64,000 nt of DNA. Source: Ktedonobacteria bacterium. Lineage in GTDB: Bacteria > Chloroflexota > Ktedonobacteria > Ktedonobacterales > JACDGC01. Position numbers and translations under genes: made by a program. The DNA lies in the NCBI GenBank assembly GCA_027459785.1, contig DAIDGU010000057.1:34150-98149 (forward strand). Reading direction: 5' to 3'. Numbering within the stretch: position 1 is the stretch's first letter; each line of letters opens with the position of its first letter. This document shows, one piece after another, positions 5,267 through 62,285 of this stretch. Under the pieces are notes generated by a model. That model was not told the origin of the DNA. It worked only from the letters and a program-made list of their open reading frames with translations, and made no database searches.

Positions 5267-5284
5267 ATGTTCCACGTGGAACAT
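5267..5284. repeat. palindrome copy 1 (ATGTTCCACGTGGAACAT, 18-bp perfect)
   Basis: Exact palindrome between the stop of 5284..6249 and the start (5251) of the downstream minus-strand gene. Confidence 0.95.
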
Positions 5285-6267: not shown

Positions 6268-6394
6268 GGCCCCACCCCCAACCCCTCCCCATCTGCGGAT
6301 GGAGAGGGGAGGACGAGATGGCCCCACCCCCAGCCCCTCCCCATCGGCGGATGGAGAGGGGAGCGCAGACGTGGGGCGGACATTCCTGTCCGCC
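6268..6394. repeat. tandem pair of CCCCTCCCC...GGAGAGGGG REP-like hairpin units plus a GGCGGACATTCCTGTCCGCC hairpin
   Basis: Two ~52-bp units: GGCCCCACCCCCA(A/G)CCCCTCCCCATC(T/G)GCGGATGGAGAGGGGAG. They are followed by an 8-bp-stem, 4-nt-loop hairpin at 6375..6394. Confidence 0.75.
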
Positions 6395-8852: not shown

Positions 8853-8936
8853 GGTAACGGAGAACAGACCTTCCCCATAACCCCGGAGGACAGACATTCT
8901 TGTCTGTCTGGCCCCGATGGCCACCGTCTGTCCCCC
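8853..8936. repeat. GGAGGACAGACATTCNTGTCTGTC-type element (single copy of the family arrayed at 61829..62008)
   Basis: GGTAACGGAGAACAGACCTTCCCCATAACCCCGGAGGACAGACATTCTTGTCTGTCTGGCCCCGATGGCCACCGTCTGTCCCC. It is collinear with the ends of the 61.8-kb array. Confidence 0.75.
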
Positions 8937-8950
8937 CATTCAATATTAGC

Positions 8951-23703: not shown

Positions 23704-23770
23704 CTCTAATTCGTGTCCTTCGTGATCATTTCGTGGCCTTCGTGTTCACCCATCCATCAGGAGATTATCA

Positions 23771-23813
23771 CCCCCTCTCCATCCGCAGATGGGGAGGGGG
23801 CAGGGGGCAGGGT
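23771..23813. repeat. CCCCTCCCC-family REP-like hairpin (inverted orientation)
   Basis: CCCCCTCTCCATCCGCAGATGGGGAGGGGGCAGGGGGCAGGG is the reverse complement of the 6268..6394 unit type. Confidence 0.7.
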
Positions 23814-29065: not shown

Positions 29066-30175
29066 TCAGTCGATCCCCACAACCTCACGCGCCCCATTCT
29101 CCCAGACGCTGGTCTCCCAGTCGTCGTGGGACTCTGCTGCTGGCAACCAGGGCGGTAGATCGATGAGCAAGAGGTGGCCCAGCGCGGCGACATACGGCTC
29201 GTAGGAACTGCGCAATTCGGCCAGGCGCGCTTCTGCCGTGGCCTCGTCGTGGAAGCGCATACCCACATCGCGCAGTAGCGCGACCAGCGCCTGAAAATCG
29301 GCATGGGGCAGGCGATCCACAGGTTGGACAGGTTTGGTCAAGAAGATCTGGCTGAGATCGACCGAGGCGTGACGAGCGATGGCGAAAGTCAGCCGTGCCG
29401 CCTGCGGCGGCAGTTCGTTCAAGCCGATCATTACCAGGGCGCAGGTGTCCATGATCATCGTGATTGCCGCCAGCCAGGACTGATTCTCATGTTGCGAGCG
29501 AAAATAGGCCAGGAAGGGATAGGAGAGATGGCTTTCCAGCAATTCCGCCGCCCAGCGCTCCCAGTCGCGCAAAAATTGCGTCAGCCCCTCGCGGTCCTGC
29601 TCACAATGGCGACGCAACATCTCCACGGCGGAAGGCGGCGAACCGGCGCGGGCATCCAGCAGCGAGATATTCACTTCGCGGTGCGAGAAGGCTTGGTAGA
29701 GGACCGGCAGATAGCCGATCACCAGCGCCAGCAAGCCGAACCCCGTCGCCGCCTCGATGACGGTGAGGAAGCGCGCCAGCGGCGAGATCGGCGTCACGTC
29801 GCCCAACCCCAGCGTGAAAAACGTTGTCCCGCTCATATACAGTTCGGTGCCGAACGAAACCGGTCCCGTGGTGTTCGCTAAGCGTGAGCCGGCAGACCAC
29901 TGTAACATGGCATAGCCGATGAGCAGCAACATGGTCCACATCCCCAACAAGATGATCAGCGAGAGCGGACCGAATGGGCCAAGGATGCGTTCGCGCGTGC
30001 GCGCCTGATGCACCCGGCGGGCAATGAAGGTGACGGGGAACCACGTGACACGGTAGACTAGGCGCGTCAGACGCACGCGCCGCGAGACACGCCGTGGTAA
30101 CAAGACCGTCTCGAAGGCATCCCACAAGACGGCGAAGATAATGATCAATGCGGCGACGGCGACGAGGAAATGCAT
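29066..30175 (-). CDS. ion-channel family protein (K+ channel-like pore)
   Basis: Pore-like TTFFTLGLGDVTP followed by a transmembrane helix. Start taken at MHFLVAVAALII. Confidence 0.6.
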   Translation of the reverse strand: MHFLVAVAALIIIFAVLWDAFETVLLPRRVSRRVRLTRLVYRVTWFPVTFIARRVHQARTRERILGPFGPLSLIILLGMWTMLLLIGYAMLQWSAGSRLANTTGPVSFGTELYMSGTTFFTLGLGDVTPISPLARFLTVIEAATGFGLLALVIGYLPVLYQAFSHREVNISLLDARAGSPPSAVEMLRRHCEQDREGLTQFLRDWERWAAELLESHLSYPFLAYFRSQHENQSWLAAITMIMDTCALVMIGLNELPPQAARLTFAIARHASVDLSQIFLTKPVQPVDRLPHADFQALVALLRDVGMRFHDEATAEARLAELRSSYEPYVAALGHLLLIDLPPWLPAAESHDDWETSVWENGAREVVGID

Positions 30176-35137: not shown

Positions 35138-35262
35138 GCGGGCGGTTGAAACCGCGCCGTTGGGGCCATCCGGCCACGAAACCTGCCTGCGCAGGTTCAC
35201 GCCAGTCCGCGAAGGCGGACTTCGTCGCCGCCAGGCGCTTAGGCGCGGTTTCAACCGCCCGC
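35138..35262. repeat. REPIN-like doublet: two REP units in inverted orientation
   Basis: GCGGGCGGTTGAAACCGCGCC...CACGAA-ACCTGC/CTGC/GCAGGT hairpin (35180..35197), then AGTCCGC/GAAG/GCGGACT (35204..35221) ...GGCGCGGTTTCAACCGCCCGC. Confidence 0.75.
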
Positions 35263-35324
35263 GTCCTCGTATCGGCAACCGCCCGCGTCCTCGTATCGGC
35301 AACCGCCCGCGTCCCCGTATCGGC
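35253..35324. repeat. 24-bp tandem repeat x3 (AACCGCCCGCGTCCTCGTATCGGC)
   Basis: Three consecutive units; the third has 1 mismatch. A degenerate CCGCCGCAACCTCCCG x2 follows. Confidence 0.85.
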
Positions 35325-35464
35325 AACCGCCCGCCGCAACCTCCCGCCGCCCGCCGCAACCTCCCGCGTCCCCCGCGCTCCGGCCATTGCCCGCATCCCC
35401 GGTACTCCCACTATTGCCCGCGTCTCCGGTGCTCCTTCCCGTACTACATATCTGCTTGTTATCC

Positions 35465-43343: not shown

Positions 43344-44588
43344 CTAGCGCGCTTCGTTCACGATGTAGTCCAGCCGCGTGCCGTGGCCGGGGGCGCTCTT
43401 GATGCCGAGGATCGCCCCGATCAGATCGACCTCGATGCACAACTGGCCCAGACCGGAATGAAAGCCTTGCCGCGCCCGTTCCATCACAGGATCGACCGCG
43501 AAGCCCACGCCGTCATCTTCCACCGAGAGGATCACCGTGTCGGGCTGGTAGGTGAGCGCGACCTGGATGTGCCGCGCCTGGCTGTGGCGCAGCGCGTTAC
43601 GCACGGCCTCGCGCGCCGCGCGGAAGAGCGCGCGTTCGATGGCGACATGGCAGCGCCGTTCGCGCCCACTCAGGCGCACGCCCAAGGGCGCGCCGCGCGT
43701 CTCAATCAGGTCGTGCAGGTAGCGTTGCAGCGTGCCAGCCAGGCCCAATTCGCTCAGCATCATCGGCTCTAGCTCGAAGATGAGCATATCCGCCTCGCGC
43801 AATGCCTCGTTCAGTCGGTTCTTCAGATCGCCAACGACATGCTGCGCGTGCGCCGGATCGCTCTTGAAGGCTGCCTCGCAGAACTCCGCTTGCAGCACAG
43901 CATCCGATAACGCGAAGCGCACGCGCTCGTCGATGCTGCGCGCCACGCTGTGGCGCTCATATTCGCGCGCGGCCAGCAGCGCCTCTTGATCCACCAGTTG
44001 CGCCGAAGTCACCGGCTGTGGTCCGGCATTCAATTCGTTGGATTCCGCGAAGTCGGCTGAAAGGGCCAGGCGCGCGGGCAGCAACGGCGCGGAATAGGGC
44101 GGCGGTTCGCGCAGGAACGCGGCATCGGCCATCGCCTGCAAGGCGAAATCCAGCGCGCCCAGGCAACGGCGGTCGTGGTCGGCTTCCGTGCGCAGATAGT
44201 CGCACACCTCGCGCGTGCCGACATACGCCAGTTCGGCCTGCGCCCACTCCTGGTAGGCTTTGACGATGGCCTGGCGGCTGTGCTGGCTGAGATCCTGCTC
44301 GATAGCGCGCAGGGCCGCTGTCGCGTGCGTGCGCCGTTCCGCTTGGCCGCTCATCAGCCGCTCGGATTCGGTCAGGTTGCCGGCGATCTCGTGGAGGTGT
44401 GCTTGCAGGCGGCGACACTCGTCATTCAGCCGCGCCCGCGCGGCGTCTAACGTGGCGCTCTGGGCAAAATCAGGTTCATCGTCGGGGCGAAACTCGTCGT
44501 CCAATGGCCCCAATTCGCCGCTGTCAGGGACAGGGCGATGCTGGATTTGGCTGCTGGAACGATCGGCGAAATCGGCGGTGATGGGCAT
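43344..44588 (-). CDS. cytoplasmic HisKA_3-type histidine-kinase-like protein with a degenerate H-box
   Basis: N-box AVRNALRHSQA, DDGVGF and GHGTRL are present. The H-box reads EYERHSVARSIDERV where ...ARELHD... is expected. No transmembrane segments. Confidence 0.7.
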   Translation of the reverse strand: MPITADFADRSSSQIQHRPVPDSGELGPLDDEFRPDDEPDFAQSATLDAARARLNDECRRLQAHLHEIAGNLTESERLMSGQAERRTHATAALRAIEQDLSQHSRQAIVKAYQEWAQAELAYVGTREVCDYLRTEADHDRRCLGALDFALQAMADAAFLREPPPYSAPLLPARLALSADFAESNELNAGPQPVTSAQLVDQEALLAAREYERHSVARSIDERVRFALSDAVLQAEFCEAAFKSDPAHAQHVVGDLKNRLNEALREADMLIFELEPMMLSELGLAGTLQRYLHDLIETRGAPLGVRLSGRERRCHVAIERALFRAAREAVRNALRHSQARHIQVALTYQPDTVILSVEDDGVGFAVDPVMERARQGFHSGLGQLCIEVDLIGAILGIKSAPGHGTRLDYIVNEAR

Positions 44589-44614
44589 CCGTGCCACCTT
44601 CCCTTCCAGGGACT

Positions 44615-44677
44615 GCGGGCGATTGAAATCGCGCCTAAGGGCTACGCCACGAAGTCCACCTGCGTGGACTGGGGATC
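44615..44677. repeat. REP unit (GCGGGCGATTGAAATCGCGCC...AGTCCAC/CTGC/GTGGACT)
   Basis: Same architecture as 54524.. and 35138... Lies between the response regulator stop and the kinase-like start. Confidence 0.75.
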
Positions 44678-44684
44678 GACAGGG

Positions 44685-45377
44685 CTAAGCGTCGTCGGTG
44701 TGGATCTTGATCCAGCCGTGGCGGAGCGCGTGGACGACAGCAGCCGTGCGGTCATTCACGTTGAGTTTTTTCAGGATCGACGTGATGTGATTCTTGACGG
44801 TCTGATCGCTGATCTTGAGCGACTTGGCGATCTCTTTGTTGCTGTTGCCACGTGAAATGTAATCCAGGATCTCGACCTCACGGGTGGAGAGCGGCGTATA
44901 GAGCGGCGTCACCTCCGGCTCATCCTCGGTCGCCATCTCGCGGAAGACGCGCAACACGCGCGAGGCCACGTGTGGGCGCGAAAGGACGTTATCGTTGATG
45001 AGGAAGATGCCCTGGCTGACGTTCGAGATCGCCTTCACCAAGTCTTCGGCCTCAATGTCTTTCAGCAGATAGGCCGCCGCGCCGACTTTGATACTCTGGA
45101 ACAATTGTTCTTCGTCTTCTTGTTCGGTGAGCATGATGATGGCGACCTGCGGGGAGAAGTGGCGCAATTGTCGGGCCAGTTCCAGGGAATTCCCGCTGAG
45201 CAGATAAGCATCGACCAGGATGACATCCGGCGTTTGGGTGCGCGCCAATTCCAGCCCTTGGGTCGCGTCCGCGCTTTCAGCGATGAGGGTACAGTTGCCG
45301 GATTGCTCCATCGCCCAGCGCACGCCAGCGCGAAACAGCGGATGTTCATCGATGATCATGATGCGAATGGTTTCCAT
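44685..45377 (-). CDS. NarL/LuxR-family response regulator
   Basis: IMIIDEHP...DVILVDAYL...IIMLT...YLLK receiver, plus the LuxR HTH LSTREVEILDYISRGNSNKEIAKSL. Confidence 0.9.
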   Translation of the reverse strand: METIRIMIIDEHPLFRAGVRWAMEQSGNCTLIAESADATQGLELARTQTPDVILVDAYLLSGNSLELARQLRHFSPQVAIIMLTEQEDEEQLFQSIKVGAAAYLLKDIEAEDLVKAISNVSQGIFLINDNVLSRPHVASRVLRVFREMATEDEPEVTPLYTPLSTREVEILDYISRGNSNKEIAKSLKISDQTVKNHITSILKKLNVNDRTAAVVHALRHGWIKIHTDDA

Positions 45378-45640
45378 GCAGCGGATCTCCCTTGTGGCGC
45401 TTCTCAGTGGGTGGACTTTTGTACGTCATAGTATACCCGATGCGCACAAGAACGCCTAGCCCCCAATTTTTGATAGCCCAGATAGGCTATCTATGCCTGA
45501 ATGGATGGCAGAGATTGGGACCGAGGCGACGATAACGCTAGCCCATCCGGGGAGGCGATCGCGTAAAACAAGATCGGTTGGTGAGCGAGGGCAACCAGCA
45601 GGGCAAATCGACTAAGAACAATGCGATCCGGCAGGCGAGG

Positions 45641-46333
45641 GCCGGCTGGCGGGTAAACCCGCGCCTTCGATCACCAAGCCTCCCTACGGAGGCTGGAGGT
45701 CGGCGGGGACGATCACAGAGATGAGGATGAATCTGAGGGGGAGTTTGGCGATGGCGGTTCGGTTACGTCGTCTCGTTCCATGATTTTCCAGTGGGCGCAG
45801 GTGCCGAGCGTGTGGTGATGGGCTTCCTGATTGCGGATGTAGTCTTGCACATTGGGCAAACGATGTTCGCCGACGCTGAACGCACCATAGCCGCCCTGCC
45901 ATTTGAAGAGATCGACGCCGGGGCGGGCGACGATGGCGTGGGCGGAGGAGCCTTTGATCTCGCCGATCAGTTTGGCGAGCGGAACGGTCGCGGGCAGCCG
46001 AACCAGCAGGTGCATATGATCCTCCACACCGCCTAACCCCAGCGGGTGCGCCCCGAACTCCTCGCATTTCGCCAATATCAACCGATACACATCGCCTCGA
46101 ATGTCTTTCGTCAACAATGGCAACCGATCCCAGGTCGCCCACACATAATGCACGAAGACATGCACGTTTGCTCCCCGCCTCGCCGCTGCCCTCCCGCGCT
46201 CTTATCCTCAACGAGGAAACACTTTCATCGCTTCAACTATACAATATACAACATTCGCGCCCTGATCGCCTCTCTCGCCCTCCAGCCTCCGCAGGGAGGC
46301 TTCGTGATCGAAAGCGTGGGTTTACCCGCCGGC
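45641..46333 (-). mobile_element. RAYT unit: IS200-like Y1 transposase flanked by inverted REP hairpins
   Basis: The 52-nt core at 45648..45699 matches the reverse complement of 46279..46330 at 48/52 positions. Each contains an AGCCTCC/N4/GGAGGCT hairpin. Confidence 0.8.
45713..46165 (-). CDS. REP-associated tyrosine transposase (IS200/IS605 TnpA-like, Y1 HUH)
   Basis: MHVFVHYVWATWDRLPLL..., HUH motif VEDHMHLLV, and a C-terminal Tyr context VQDYIRNQ. Confidence 0.85.
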   Translation of the reverse strand: MHVFVHYVWATWDRLPLLTKDIRGDVYRLILAKCEEFGAHPLGLGGVEDHMHLLVRLPATVPLAKLIGEIKGSSAHAIVARPGVDLFKWQGGYGAFSVGEHRLPNVQDYIRNQEAHHHTLGTCAHWKIMERDDVTEPPSPNSPSDSSSSL

Positions 46334-46431
46334 TGGGCTGGGCGTCCCATGCGATCACGCTATTCTCGCTCACGTGGCGGACAGGAATGTCCACCCCACG
46401 AAAAAGATATGATCAACAACGTCATGGAATA

Positions 46432-46992
46432 TCACTCCACCGCCCGCTTCAGCCACACGGCCATCTCGCCGTCGGGATACGCAGCGTTGGCATAGAGCGA
46501 GAGGTCGAGGCCGTCGAGCGTGAAGCCCAGTGCGCGATAGAAGCGGATGGCGGGTACGTTGGTCGTCTGGGTCTCGCACACGACGGTGCGCAGCGCCAGC
46601 TCGCGCGCGCGGGCAAGTACAGCATTCATCAAACGGCGACCGATGCCCTGGCCGCGAGATGCTGGGGTGATGTGGAACTCCCACACGTTCAAGCTGCCGT
46701 TCCACTGCTGCGGCTCCGTGACCGCGATGCCCACACAGGCCGAGCCGTCAAACGCCCCAAAGGCATGCCCTGCCGCCGCCAGCGCGGCATAGCGGCGCTG
46801 TGCCTCGTCATCCAGCAACGCGCCGTACTCCTTGGTGTACGGCTGCGCCAGCGGCGTCAGGCGCAGCTCAAAGACCGTCAGGGCATCGGTCTCCGTTCGG
46901 CTGGCGTGATAGACGGCATCGGTCGTATATCCCGTGATGAGTCGCCGCAACAAGCCTCCGTCAAGTTGCGTGATAGGCTGGATAATGAGCAT
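46432..46992 (-). CDS. GNAT N-acetyltransferase (streptothricin-acetyltransferase-like)
   Basis: WEFHITPASRGQGIGRRLMNAVLARA...NVPAIRFYRALGFTLDGLDLSLY. Confidence 0.75.
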   Translation of the reverse strand: MLIIQPITQLDGGLLRRLITGYTTDAVYHASRTETDALTVFELRLTPLAQPYTKEYGALLDDEAQRRYAALAAAGHAFGAFDGSACVGIAVTEPQQWNGSLNVWEFHITPASRGQGIGRRLMNAVLARARELALRTVVCETQTTNVPAIRFYRALGFTLDGLDLSLYANAAYPDGEMAVWLKRAVE

Positions 46993-53204: not shown

Positions 53205-53891
53205 ATGAGTTTACTGACGAAGCGCGATATCATGAGCGTGATTGCGACGGGGGCGCTGGCCTTCACGCCGGAACTGGACGCCTTTCAGCTTCAGCCGCAC
53301 GCGGTGGATCTGCGGCTGGGCTTCACCTTTTTGGTGGCGCGGCGCTGGATCTTTAATCAGCTGGGGCGCATCGCCTTGCGGTCGGATCAGTTGGAAAGCG
53401 GCGCGGCGCTCTATGACACGATTGAGTTGGAACAAGGCCAGGTCTTCGATCTGTTGCCGGGTGAGGGCGTACTCGTCTCCACGCTGGAGGTGATCCGCAT
53501 GCCGGACGATCTGGTGGGGCAGATGTATCCGCGCTCGTCGGTGAACCGGCGCGGCCTGGCGGTGGACCTGAGCGGCATCATCGACGCCGGCTATGAGGGC
53601 AACTTGATCATCCCCGTGCGCAACAATGATCGCAGCGCGGTGGTGCGCCTCTATCCCGGCGAACGCTTCTGCCAGATCACCTTCACAGCACTTACGGGAC
53701 CGGTGGAGGTGCGTCGGAGTCGCTATCACCGCCGCGACATCGCCACGGGCGTGTTGCCGGAGCAAAACCAGGATGAGGTGCAATTGGTGCGCGCGGGTGA
53801 CATCACCGCGCTGAAGGCGCGCTACGGCATGACGCAGCCCCACCCCCCGGCCCCCTCCCCCGATGGAGAGGGGGAAAAGAACGGGAGTTAG
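53205..53891 (+). CDS. dCTP deaminase/dUTPase-superfamily protein (atypical)
   Basis: [18 protein letters not shown] and [11 protein letters not shown] match the family. The C-terminal 20 aa are encoded by a REP-like repeat. GAGGTGG RBS. Confidence 0.7.
53837..53873. repeat. CCCCTCCCC-family REP-like unit inside the 3' end of the dcd-like ORF
   Basis: CCCCACCCCCCGGCCCCCTCCCCCGATGGAGAGGGGG, translated ...[13 protein letters not shown]... Confidence 0.65.
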
Positions 53892-54523: not shown

Positions 54524-54618
54524 GGCGGGCGGTTGAAACCGCGCCTAAGGGCGTGCCGCCACGAAGTCCACCTGCGTGGACTAGGATCCAAGCCTGCGAC
54601 GGCGGGTTTCGTGGTCGC
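54524..54618. repeat. REP unit (GGCGGGCGGTTGAAACCGCGCCTAAGGGC...AGTCCAC/CTGC/GTGGACT) with an extension
   Basis: The hairpin is identical to that of 44615..44677. A G-rich run precedes it. Confidence 0.75.
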
Positions 54619-54716
54619 ATAGCTCCATCGGCGCGCACATTGGTTTCAATCAATACCGCCCGCGTCTCCTGTGCATATTACCAGCTATAGTGTTGGCGCG
54701 AGGAACATGGATCGAG

Positions 54717-61828: not shown

Positions 61829-62008
61829 GGTAACGGAGGACAGACATTCCCCATAACTCTGGAGGATAAACATTCCTGTCTGTCACCCGATCACCTGGAG
61901 GACAGACATTCCTGTCTGTCACCCTTCCCCGGAGGACAAACATTCTCCCTCACCCCGGAGGACAAACATTCCTGTCTGTCCGGCCTTGATGACCACCGTC
62001 TGTCCCCG
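61829..62008. repeat. array of five GGAGGA(C/T)A(G/A)ACATTC(C/T)... units (25-36 bp), several with a GACAGAC/ATTCCT/GTCTGTC hairpin
   Basis: Units begin at about 61836, 61861, 61897, 61931 and 61957. The outer ends are collinear with the single element at 8853..8936. Confidence 0.8.
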
Positions 62009-62285
62009 CAACGGGTATACCTCGTCCTAGCCCGGAGGGGTTCCTTTTCCGAGCCGGGGGGTTTAACCCCCGGTGTGCTGGCGATGATGTGATCGGCCCC
62101 CGGTGTGCCGGCGACGATGGGAACGCTGCCCCCGACGGGGTATATCCGCCTTATTTTGTAAAACGGCATAATCGCGCCCATACACTGCCATGCGTGGGCC
62201 GGACATTCCTGTCCGCCGTGTTGGCCGGCCATGTGCGGACAAGCGTTGCCAGATAGGTGATTGGTATCCGGAGGAGGTAATTACC

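Follow-up and report, generated by a model that had tools for sequence, protein, structure and literature searches.

What kind of element is formed by a single-tyrosine (Y1) HUH endonuclease gene that lies between inverted hairpin repeats in a genome of the Ktedonobacteria? The question is raised by a locus in a 64,000-nt stretch of DNA from a Ktedonobacteria bacterium (GenBank assembly GCA_027459785.1, contig DAIDGU010000057.1, positions 34,150 to 98,149 of the forward strand; hereafter the window, numbered from its first nucleotide), which an earlier note made from the sequence alone had assigned to the REP-associated tyrosine transposases (RAYTs). The system of repetitive extragenic palindromes (REPs), their hairpin-forming doublets (REPINs) and RAYTs is the best-known case of a transposase kept for a very long time by its host, and a locus of this kind bears on how it arose from IS200-like elements. 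We give a probability of about 60% to the reading that the locus is a REPtron-like unit around an IS200-proximal, probably low-copy Y1 HUH endonuclease (TnpAY1 subclass 1.2), whose flanking hairpins would be its single-stranded DNA (ssDNA) substrates and would have REPIN-like derivatives. The layout resembles a REPtron because the gene lies inside inverted hairpin repeats whose superfamily has gene-less members too. The protein has intact catalytic motifs and the expected fold, and the stems show strict Watson-Crick covariation.

The gene is a minus-strand open reading frame (ORF) with a GTG start (Table 1), and the Y1 HUH product described in the earlier note was recovered with its HYVWATW, DHMH and YIRNQ segments in place. 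The protein begins MHVFVHYVWATWDRLPLL and contains the further segments VEDHMHLLV, FKWQGGYGAF and YIRNQEAHHH; the proposed search with the Y1_Tnp hidden Markov model gave its sole Pfam match, over profile positions 7-121 of 121. The HuH motif corresponds to H50/H52, the WQ motif to W89-Q90 and the tyrosine motif to Y109-IRN-Q113-EA-H116-H117. In an alignment of 30 homologues, WxTWDRLP, G46, D49-H50-x-H52, G72-x-S74, F87-x-W89-Q90-G91-x-Y93-x-A95, Y109, Q113 and H117 were invariant, H116 was conserved in more than 90%, and the tail was short and not conserved. The window protein has every invariant column, including the catalytic residues whose possible loss the earlier note had raised. A profile search returned 468 clusters (50% identity) at E <=1e-30; the window protein itself was not on record in the protein search, and no stretch of the species collection carried both arms of its flanking repeat. 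A Logan contig (L001, 98.5% identical) differs from the window gene by two codons, which carry no information on selection.

According to Quentin, Siguier, Chandler & Fichant (2018; PMC6006769, Table 1), subclass 1.2 is characterised by HuH, WQ and Y---Q--HH motifs in a protein of about 148 aa, and the tyrosine motif of the RAYT/TnpAREP proteins (class 2) is Y---NP. The window protein carries the former signature (DHMH, with M for I/V and with DHVH in most homologues; KWQ; YIRNQEAHH, without NP; 150 aa), and by these motifs it is a TnpAY1 protein of subclass 1.2, a sister of the true IS200 transposases, and not a canonical RAYT. The RAYT identity proposed in the earlier note was therefore given up, since the protein fails the NCBIfam RAYT model NF047646 (19.6 bits, E 6.6e-4, against a cut-off of 80), has Y---Q--HH in place of Y---NP, and is accompanied by hairpins without a GT[AG]G foot. 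The NCBIfam IS200 model NF033573 was barely passed (56.4 bits against a cut-off of 55). In a sequence search against solved structures, only IS200-type transposases of Deinococcus and Sulfolobus were matched (E ~4e-5), and the E. coli RAYT was not recovered. An AlphaFold2 model (mean predicted local distance difference test score, 84.7) was matched by Foldseek to IS608, ISDra2 and Sulfolobus TnpA at E ~1e-7 and to the E. coli RAYT 4er8 at E 5e-6 (root-mean-square deviation, 2.8 Å); matches of such a predicted model indicate the common HUH-Y1 fold and nothing beyond that. Choosing between IS200 and RAYT by fold was dropped, as Foldseek matches both and the low deviation from 4er8 probably comes from the use of a monomer model.

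The homologues start with MR(G/R)AN, five codons upstream of the window start. The window reads R-R-G-A-N in frame at this place (46166-46180, minus strand), with AGG at 46178-46180 where the homologue P0003 has ATG, and the GTG at 46165 is preceded by GGGGAG; from these letters, the usual start codon of the family seems to have been lost, and translation probably begins at the GTG. No second Y1 gene was found in the window; a tblastn match at 29820-29930 (E 0.019) was rejected as spurious, as it lies inside a gene that appears unrelated by sequence.

The flanking repeat (45642-45715 and 46263-46336) is the longest inverted repeat of the window, with two arms of 74 nt that are 84% complementary and 547 nt apart. 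The 52-nt inverted flanks of the earlier note form its core, in which 45648-45699 and the reverse complement of 46279-46330 differ at 4 positions (48/52 identical). The AGCCTCC-N4-GGAGGCT hairpin of that note was found once per flank and exactly twice in the window (45677-45694 and 46284-46301; 0.02 expected), and the 27-mer GGCGGGTAAACCCGCGCCTTCGATCAC likewise occurs twice (<=2 mismatches; 0.00 expected). What had been missed is a second hairpin on the gene-distal side of each arm (GGCGGG-TAAA-CCCGC). Each arm is thus a bipartite module in the order hairpin 1 (HP1; GGCGGG-TAAA-CCCGC(G)CC), linker (TTCGATCAC[C/G]A) and hairpin 2 (HP2; AGCCTCC-CT[A/G]C-GGAGGCT), with HP2 facing the gene on both sides. 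The generalised module consists of HP1 GGCG-NN-TAAA-N'N'-CGCGCC, a linker, and HP2 with a 7-bp stem and a CTNC loop. The hairpins lack a GT[AG]G foot: on the forward strand GCN stands before HP1 and an invariant T after it, the foot on the opposite strand reads NNNA, and GTAG or GCAG is confined to the HP2 loop of the opposite strand. The idea that HP1 has a GTAG-like foot on its other strand was dropped, since the G in question is part of the stem and the bases before it are variable. The absence of tnpB and of IS200-type ends was borne out: no tnpB was found beside the gene or elsewhere in the window, the arms are inverted over 74 nt, and the genes on either side are 44685-45377, for a LuxR-type response regulator, and 46432-46992, for a GNAT acetyltransferase.

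Homologue loci were fetched by protein identity, and the upstream DNA of each gene was aligned with its reverse-complemented downstream DNA. Inverted HP1-linker-HP2 modules were found in 11/11 homologue groups from Chloroflexota and cyanobacteria, covering at least two phyla, as well as in the visible half of a further locus (L071), and they flank the gene with HP2 always proximal (L002, L006, L007, L091, L093, L099, L122, L123, L127 and L128). In L002 (71% identity to the window protein), HP1 is identical to that of the window, the linker is TTCGATCTG, and HP2 reads AGCCTGC/GCAGGCT on one arm and AGGCTCC/GGAGCCT on the other. L006 (67%) has HP1 GGCGGC-TAAA-GCCGC, linker TTCGATAGC and HP2 AGCCTGC-CTTC-GCAGGCT; L007 (50%) has HP1 GGCGGT-TAAA-ACCGC, a long linker and HP2 ACCTGC-CTGC-GCAGGT; HP1 is GGCGAC-TAAA-GTCGC in L091 (46%) and GGCGAA-TAAA-TTCGC in L093 (47%), and the same architecture is seen in L099 (43%) and L123 (45%). 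The inverted repeat is longer than the module core, reaching 170 nt in L002. HP2 lies 13-98 nt from the start codon across the loci, and the downstream module directly adjoins or overlaps the stop codon, so that no room is left for the ends of another element. The linker type tracks the protein clade: the window protein, P0002 and P0003 (67-71% identity) share CTTCGAT, P0014 and P0113 (66%) share CTGAAsGGCC, and P0066 and P0095 (86%) share CTGGAkGGCC.

Covariation was analysed in 14 flank modules from seven loci, which had been picked via protein homology alone and none for structure. In this set 99.4% of the cells were paired, 6/12 pairs had changed on both sides, and 33 double-change cells stood against 0 one-sided changes, with no G-U in 168 cells; the observed pairing and covariation were reached by 0/500 shuffles, and slid controls were 25-41% paired. 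Among 96 distinct modules, whose alignment was fitted to the model and leans towards it, 97.2% of the cells were paired, 10/12 pairs were compensatory, and 142 double changes were counted against about 20 G-U or U-G cells. The stem changes are almost all Watson-Crick, with few G-T pairs, which fits hairpins that form in DNA or on either strand. A covariance model (R1) was then built from the flank modules only. It recovered modules on both sides and in the expected orientation at loci on which it had not been trained, namely L127 (Brasilonema) and L128 (a high-GC contig), with E 1e-6 to 3e-8; at two more such loci, L123 gave E 2e-12 and 3e-8, and in L122 (Nostoc piscinale) the downstream modules gave E 1.7e-6 and 8e-5 and the upstream one was weak (18.1 bits, E 0.02). 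Folding energy was dropped as support for single modules, whose z-scores are weak, and covariation is the evidence used here.

Several of these loci showed additional arrangements around the gene. In L127 (9764-9994), the module is duplicated upstream of the Brasilonema gene with a fragment encoding YVWATWDRLPLITPDI between the copies, an arrangement whose sequence indicates a local partial duplication of the gene start and the module. In L122 (7643-12587) and L127 (6301-13019), the Y1 gene lies in a dnd (DNA-phosphorothioation) cluster between PAPS_reduct (dndC-like) and SMC/AAA_23 (dndD-like) genes, and the Chloroflexi homologue P0014 (L011) also adjoins a gene for a 1030-aa SMC_N/AAA_23 protein. 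Outside the modules of two Ktedonobacterales Y1 loci (L091, 141-200 and 900-955; L094/L095, downstream of ~1912), tandem repeats of CAGAGTCACG / CTCTGTGTGACT are present, and those on one side are inverted relative to those on the other.

The modules also occur without the gene. With filters off, R1 gave six strong matches in the window (55-67 bits), namely the two flanks and four gene-less modules at three intergenic sites (Table 1). The doublet between T2SSF-like and TadE-like genes is a 97% complementary inverted pair that folds as ssDNA into one long hairpin (-66.7 kcal/mol, z -10.2). The single module is flanked by the genes of a response regulator and a histidine kinase, at a distance of 1 kb from the Y1 gene, and has a compensated A-T pair in HP1. 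The third site lies between msrA and another ORF, and its doublet fold has z -5.7. In folding as one long ssDNA hairpin, the doublets of the window are like REPINs. All of the gene-less copies in the window are of a sister type (HP1 GGCGGT-TGAA-ACCGC; linker CTAAGGGC..CCACGAA), whose HP1 aligns without gaps to that of the flanks with one compensated pair (G-C to T-A) and one changed loop base.

Table 1. Positions in the window of the Y1 gene, of the two modules that flank it and of the gene-less modules.
Feature	Position	Strand	Sequence and score
Y1 HUH endonuclease gene	45713..46165	-	150 aa, TnpAY1 subclass 1.2 signature; Y1_Tnp 71.3 bits
Arm 3' of gene	45642..45715	+	Module 45645-45696; R1 66.8 bits, E 1.9e-13
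Left-arm HP1	45648-45665	+	GGCGGG-TAAA-CCCGC-G-CC
Left-arm linker, then HP2	45677-45694 (HP2)	+	Linker TTCGATCACCA; HP2 AGCCTCC-CTAC-GGAGGCT; faces gene; stop codon abuts arm
Arm 5' of gene	46263..46336	-	Module 46282-46333; R1 63.4 bits, E 1.1e-12
Right-arm HP1	46313-46330	-	GGCGGG-TAAA-CCCAC, one stem mismatch
Right-arm HP2	46284-46301	-	AGCCTCC-CTGC-GGAGGCT; faces gene, 98 nt before GTG start
Gene-less tail-to-tail doublet, sister type	35138..35262	35138-35199 (+), 35202-35262 (-)	R1 57.7 and 62.2 bits
Gene-less single module	44615..44672	+	R1 55.3 bits; GCGGGCGATTGAAATCGCGCC .. CCACGAA GTCCAC-CTGC-GTGGAC
Gene-less module and degenerate inverted partner	54525-54584, 54589-54663	+, -	R1 63.2 bits; partner 20.9 bits, E 0.004

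In a scan of one genome per species, the exact flank HP1 was found singly on 9, 5, 5 and 3 contigs of four Ktedonobacterales bins and also on contigs of several Chloroflexia bins. The upstream contexts differed, HP1 was followed in most cases by CCRCRAAG, HP2 and a CTGGGA tail, and no Y1 gene was present in the DNA fetched around these sites. A metagenome scan for HP1 with the window's own TTCGAT linker gave about nine modules that are truly of the own type, on contigs that lack a Y1 gene as judged from the 430-1300 nt available on the HP2 side; viral contigs gave four single matches. Across 56 loci, R1 found 98 modules, and adjacent pairs were arranged tail-to-tail ('+ then -', HP2 inside; about 15-17 cases) and in no case head-to-head, which is the geometry seen around the gene. 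The dispersed modules score 55-84 bits on R1 and share with the flanks both hairpins, both loops, their order and the flanking motifs. On a 1-Mb Chloroflexia contig (L071), the Y1 gene with its flank module and a doublet lie 6 kb apart. Matches in Acidobacteriota (L024 and L089) were set aside as unrelated, as an HP1-like 20-mer stands there in a conserved but different context.

Some further features of the gene-less copies were recorded. Directly beside the doublet of the window, 35228-35347 holds four tandem 24-nt units of CAACCGCCCGCGTCCTCGTATCGG, whose beginning is the 3' half of HP1, as though the array had arisen from the module. The similarity of L001 (1500-2506) to the window (44560-44704) ends about 30 nt from the single module, at the end of the response-regulator gene; mismatches cluster just before the break, and past it a Flp-like gene stands where the window has the histidine kinase. 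Either a recombination boundary beside the module or a chimera of the assembly could explain this. Four contigs (L052, L053, L059 and L081) of JAJPIU01, labelled 'Proteobacteria bacterium Centralia_MAG_377', carry at least nine typical modules; either this bin is mislabelled or contaminated, or the repeat family extends past the Chloroflexota.

Subclass 1.2 is among the closest known systems. Quentin et al. (2018) place it near IS200, without the properties of an IS and at low copy number, mostly in Cyanobacteria and Bacteroidetes; the window protein agrees with it in the DH[IV]H-like HuH, the WQ and the Y---Q--HH motifs (YIRNQEAHH here against the consensus YIKNQKEHH), the length of about 148 aa, the lack of tnpB and the cyanobacterial relatives, and its one copy in the window would fit a low copy number. 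It differs in that every member examined here has inverted two-hairpin flanks, and in that many members here belong to Chloroflexota (Ktedonobacterales and Chloroflexia), with modules dispersed as singlets and tail-to-tail doublets. The IS200 Group 3 ('RAYT-like') of Bertels et al. (2017; PMC5581495), which is probably the same group by our comparison, is likewise reported to have no duplicates, no plasmid copies and abundant 16-mers in its flanks, and these authors cautiously propose one group of IS200 as the possible closest relative of the RAYTs.

The resemblance to the RAYT/TnpAREP proteins (class 2; E. coli YafM, 4ER8; Pseudomonas groups 2 and 3) lies in the layout: an HUH-Y1 gene, in one copy in the window, inside inverted hairpin repeats (REPtron), intergenic dispersal of the repeats (of the sister type in the window), in many cases as inverted doublets with a long-hairpin fold, a repeat type specific to the protein clade, and the same fold. 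The organisation that the earlier note compared with RAYTs of Proteobacteria is thus REPtron-like, with inverted modules and gene-less copies, and the protein class is different: in addition to the model score, tyrosine motif and hairpin foot given above, the repeat is bipartite (two different hairpins and a linker) and not a single palindrome, and the protein is nearer to the true IS200 transposases by sequence. The HP1 core GCGGGTAAACCCGC (window 45650-45663) recurs without change as the core of the 35-bp REP consensus of Pseudomonas putida (..TTCGCGGGtaaaCCCGCtCCtaC..; PMC11585281), a canonical RAYT substrate; this identity of letters could be convergence or a shared solution to recognition. 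A literature search with the module sequence gave only this REP, and no paper describing the bipartite repeats was found.

The IS200/IS605 TnpA proteins (subclass 1.1; IS608, ISDra2, Salmonella IS200) are the closest solved relatives in sequence and fold, and share Y---Q with the HUH site, about 150 aa, a unit of about 700 bp, hairpins near both ends and dimeric action, the last suggested here by natural tandem fusions. In contrast, their two ends do not form inverted repeats, and the hairpins of both ends are used on one and the same strand (PMC8266576), where the window has 74-nt inverted arms, and they are multicopy and near-identical, often with tnpB, neither of which was seen in the DNA available. 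The fusions are Y1-Y1 proteins of the subclass of 270-320 aa (P0121, P0122, P0124 and some 25 more); the first domain of P0121 and P0122 lacks one HUH His and keeps the Tyr and the second domain is intact, a pattern that would be the expected look of a single-chain IS608-like dimer with trans active sites. TIRYTs and their TIRtrons (Di Nocera et al. 2013, PMC3733652) also have a Y1 gene inside terminal inverted repeats, which in some hosts belong to a moderately abundant family arranged as dimers. They differ in being mostly of subclass 2.1 and longer, with a C-terminal helix-turn-helix, Y---NP and GGGGWSAS in the terminal repeats; no GGGGWSAS was found in the window arms and no helix-turn-helix in the protein, whose Pfam match is Y1_Tnp only.

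By analogy with IS608/ISDra2 TnpA and the E. coli/Marinomonas TnpAREP (PMC8266576), the enzyme would recognise HP1 and/or HP2 in ssDNA, for example in the lagging-strand template, cut beside the hairpins through a 5'-phosphotyrosine on Y109 with a metal held by H50, H52 and Q113, and then rejoin the strands. The gene-less doublets and singles would be non-autonomous derivatives of the flanks (REPIN-like, or like miniature inverted-repeat transposable elements, MITEs) moved or copied in trans, and the gene itself would stay at a fixed place in each lineage. That the enzyme binds the hairpins, where and on which strand it cuts, what each hairpin contributes and the mobilisation in trans are inferred by analogy. 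The dispersed copies of the window would be served by this gene or by an unseen paralogue with CTAAGGGC-type flanks; the earlier suggestion of a candidate enzyme for the REP families of the window is reasonable for this one family and does not carry over to the other repeat families, which fail the module model.

The 695-bp unit formed by the modules and the gene, about the size of IS200, could instead be an autonomous IS with unusual inverted hairpin ends that moves rarely and whose MITEs are the doublets. Its Y---Q motif, the passing of the IS200 model and the true transposases among its closest solved relatives agree with this, as do the unrelated genomic contexts of the homologue groups, the splitting of an ABC-transporter operon by the unit of L128 and the partial duplication in L127. 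However, two copies of the gene were never seen in the DNA examined, and each protein had a single context (the same one on 10 contigs shown from 24 read in the case of P0014, on 6 shown from 7 read for P0066 and on 4 shown from 5 read for P0003), which argues against an active multicopy IS; the ends described for IS200/IS605 also differ, as stated above. We regard this explanation as unlikely. A quite different account takes the modules as an independent host repeat family, with REP functions in mRNA stability, termination or protein binding, into whose doublet centres the Y1 element inserts. IS elements that target REPs are known, for example ISPpu9 of P. putida with seven copies in REP sequences (PMC8450116), and the gene-less tail-to-tail doublets do share their geometry with the gene flanks. 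Such targeting is very improbable in view of the missing room for separate IS ends, the presence of the layout in all 11 groups, including hosts without dispersed copies in 20 kb, the extension of the inverted repeat past the module core, and the absence of a multicopy gene from the DNA examined. Slightly less probable still is that the modules serve only to regulate how the Y1 gene is expressed, for example by forming RNA hairpins within its 5' leader and at its 3' end, and that the dispersed copies are unrelated look-alikes. HP2 stands 13-50 nt away, just upstream of the ribosome-binding site, in most loci and is therefore probably in the mRNA leader, and a leader hairpin controls IS200 (PMC3733652); yet look-alikes would hardly share both hairpins, loops, order and flanking motifs at the scores given by a model built from flanks only, the scarcity of G-U pairs fits folding in DNA or on both strands over folding of one RNA, no Rfam family was found in the whole window, and a scan of 45300-46700 for promoter and terminator consensus found nothing.

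The REPtron-like reading has points against it as well. Quentin et al. (2018) tabulate subclass 1.2 as "REP: no", which is contradicted here by the inverted hairpin modules of every member examined, dispersed in some hosts; as "REP: no" is a reported property and not a defining one, the modules extend the description of the subclass. Within the window, to which the counts of the gene and of its module type for the source genome are confined, the own type (TTCGATCAC linker) stands solely at the gene, with 0 further copies of it or of the 52-mer of the earlier note, and the dispersed copies are of the sister type, to which another Y1 paralogue may be cognate. In four loci of 20 kb from other hosts, flanks were found and dispersed copies were not, so that proliferation is specific to some lineages, which may be why the subclass was tabulated without REPs; in the lineages of those four hosts the modules may be private terminal repeats. 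The agreement between linker type and protein clade would also be expected from simple linkage alone, single modules barely fold better than shuffled GC-rich sequence (z -0.4 to -2.8), the enzymatic action of subclass 1.2 proteins is argued by analogy, and the window gene has lost the usual ATG of its family.

Three other repeat families of the window (TGTTCCACGTGGAACA, CCCCTCCCC..GGAGAGGGG and GGACAGACATTCCTGTC) gave no match to R1. The perfect 16-bp palindrome TGTTCCACGTGGAACA has eight copies, at 5268, 8808, 11128, 17529, 27417, 34508, 39623 and 42764 (0.01 expected); it is unrelated to the Y1 modules and might serve as the binding site of a regulator or be a further dispersed repeat. A hairpin family of the form CCCCTCCCCATC-NGCG-GATGGAGAGGGG, without an R1 match, has four copies, two of them in tandem (6275-6361, 23765-23813 and 53832-53875). 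The third family, around GGACAGACATTCCTGTC, lies at 6370-6394, 46376-46400, 8858-8938, 61834-62010 and 62197-62213, and its copy at 46376-46400 is 40 nt outside the right Y1 arm and 96% complementary to 6370-6394.

The REPtron anatomy throughout subclass 1.2 and the bipartite two-hairpin repeat that has proliferated in Chloroflexota appear to be new, although the abundant flanking 16-mers of Bertels et al. (2017) partly anticipate the finding. The database labels "IS200/IS605 family transposase" and "RayT" that such genes carry are neither of them accurate, and the modules are an unrecognised class of repeats that breaks Ktedonobacterales genome assemblies. We suggest tentatively, with a little less than even confidence, that subclass 1.2 proteins and the bipartite module together form an undescribed REPIN/RAYT-like replicator system, universal for the subclass across Chloroflexota and Cyanobacteria, that arose from IS200 separately from the canonical RAYTs or as a surviving intermediate towards them. 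If so, it would connect an insertion sequence with a domesticated REP system as a living link, and would have a substrate of two hairpins and possibly an enzyme that is dimeric like that of IS608. The locus and its relatives offer a concrete system for asking whether the REP association is older than the RAYT-type active site, what purpose the two-hairpin substrate has, and whether a dimer acts on both arms.

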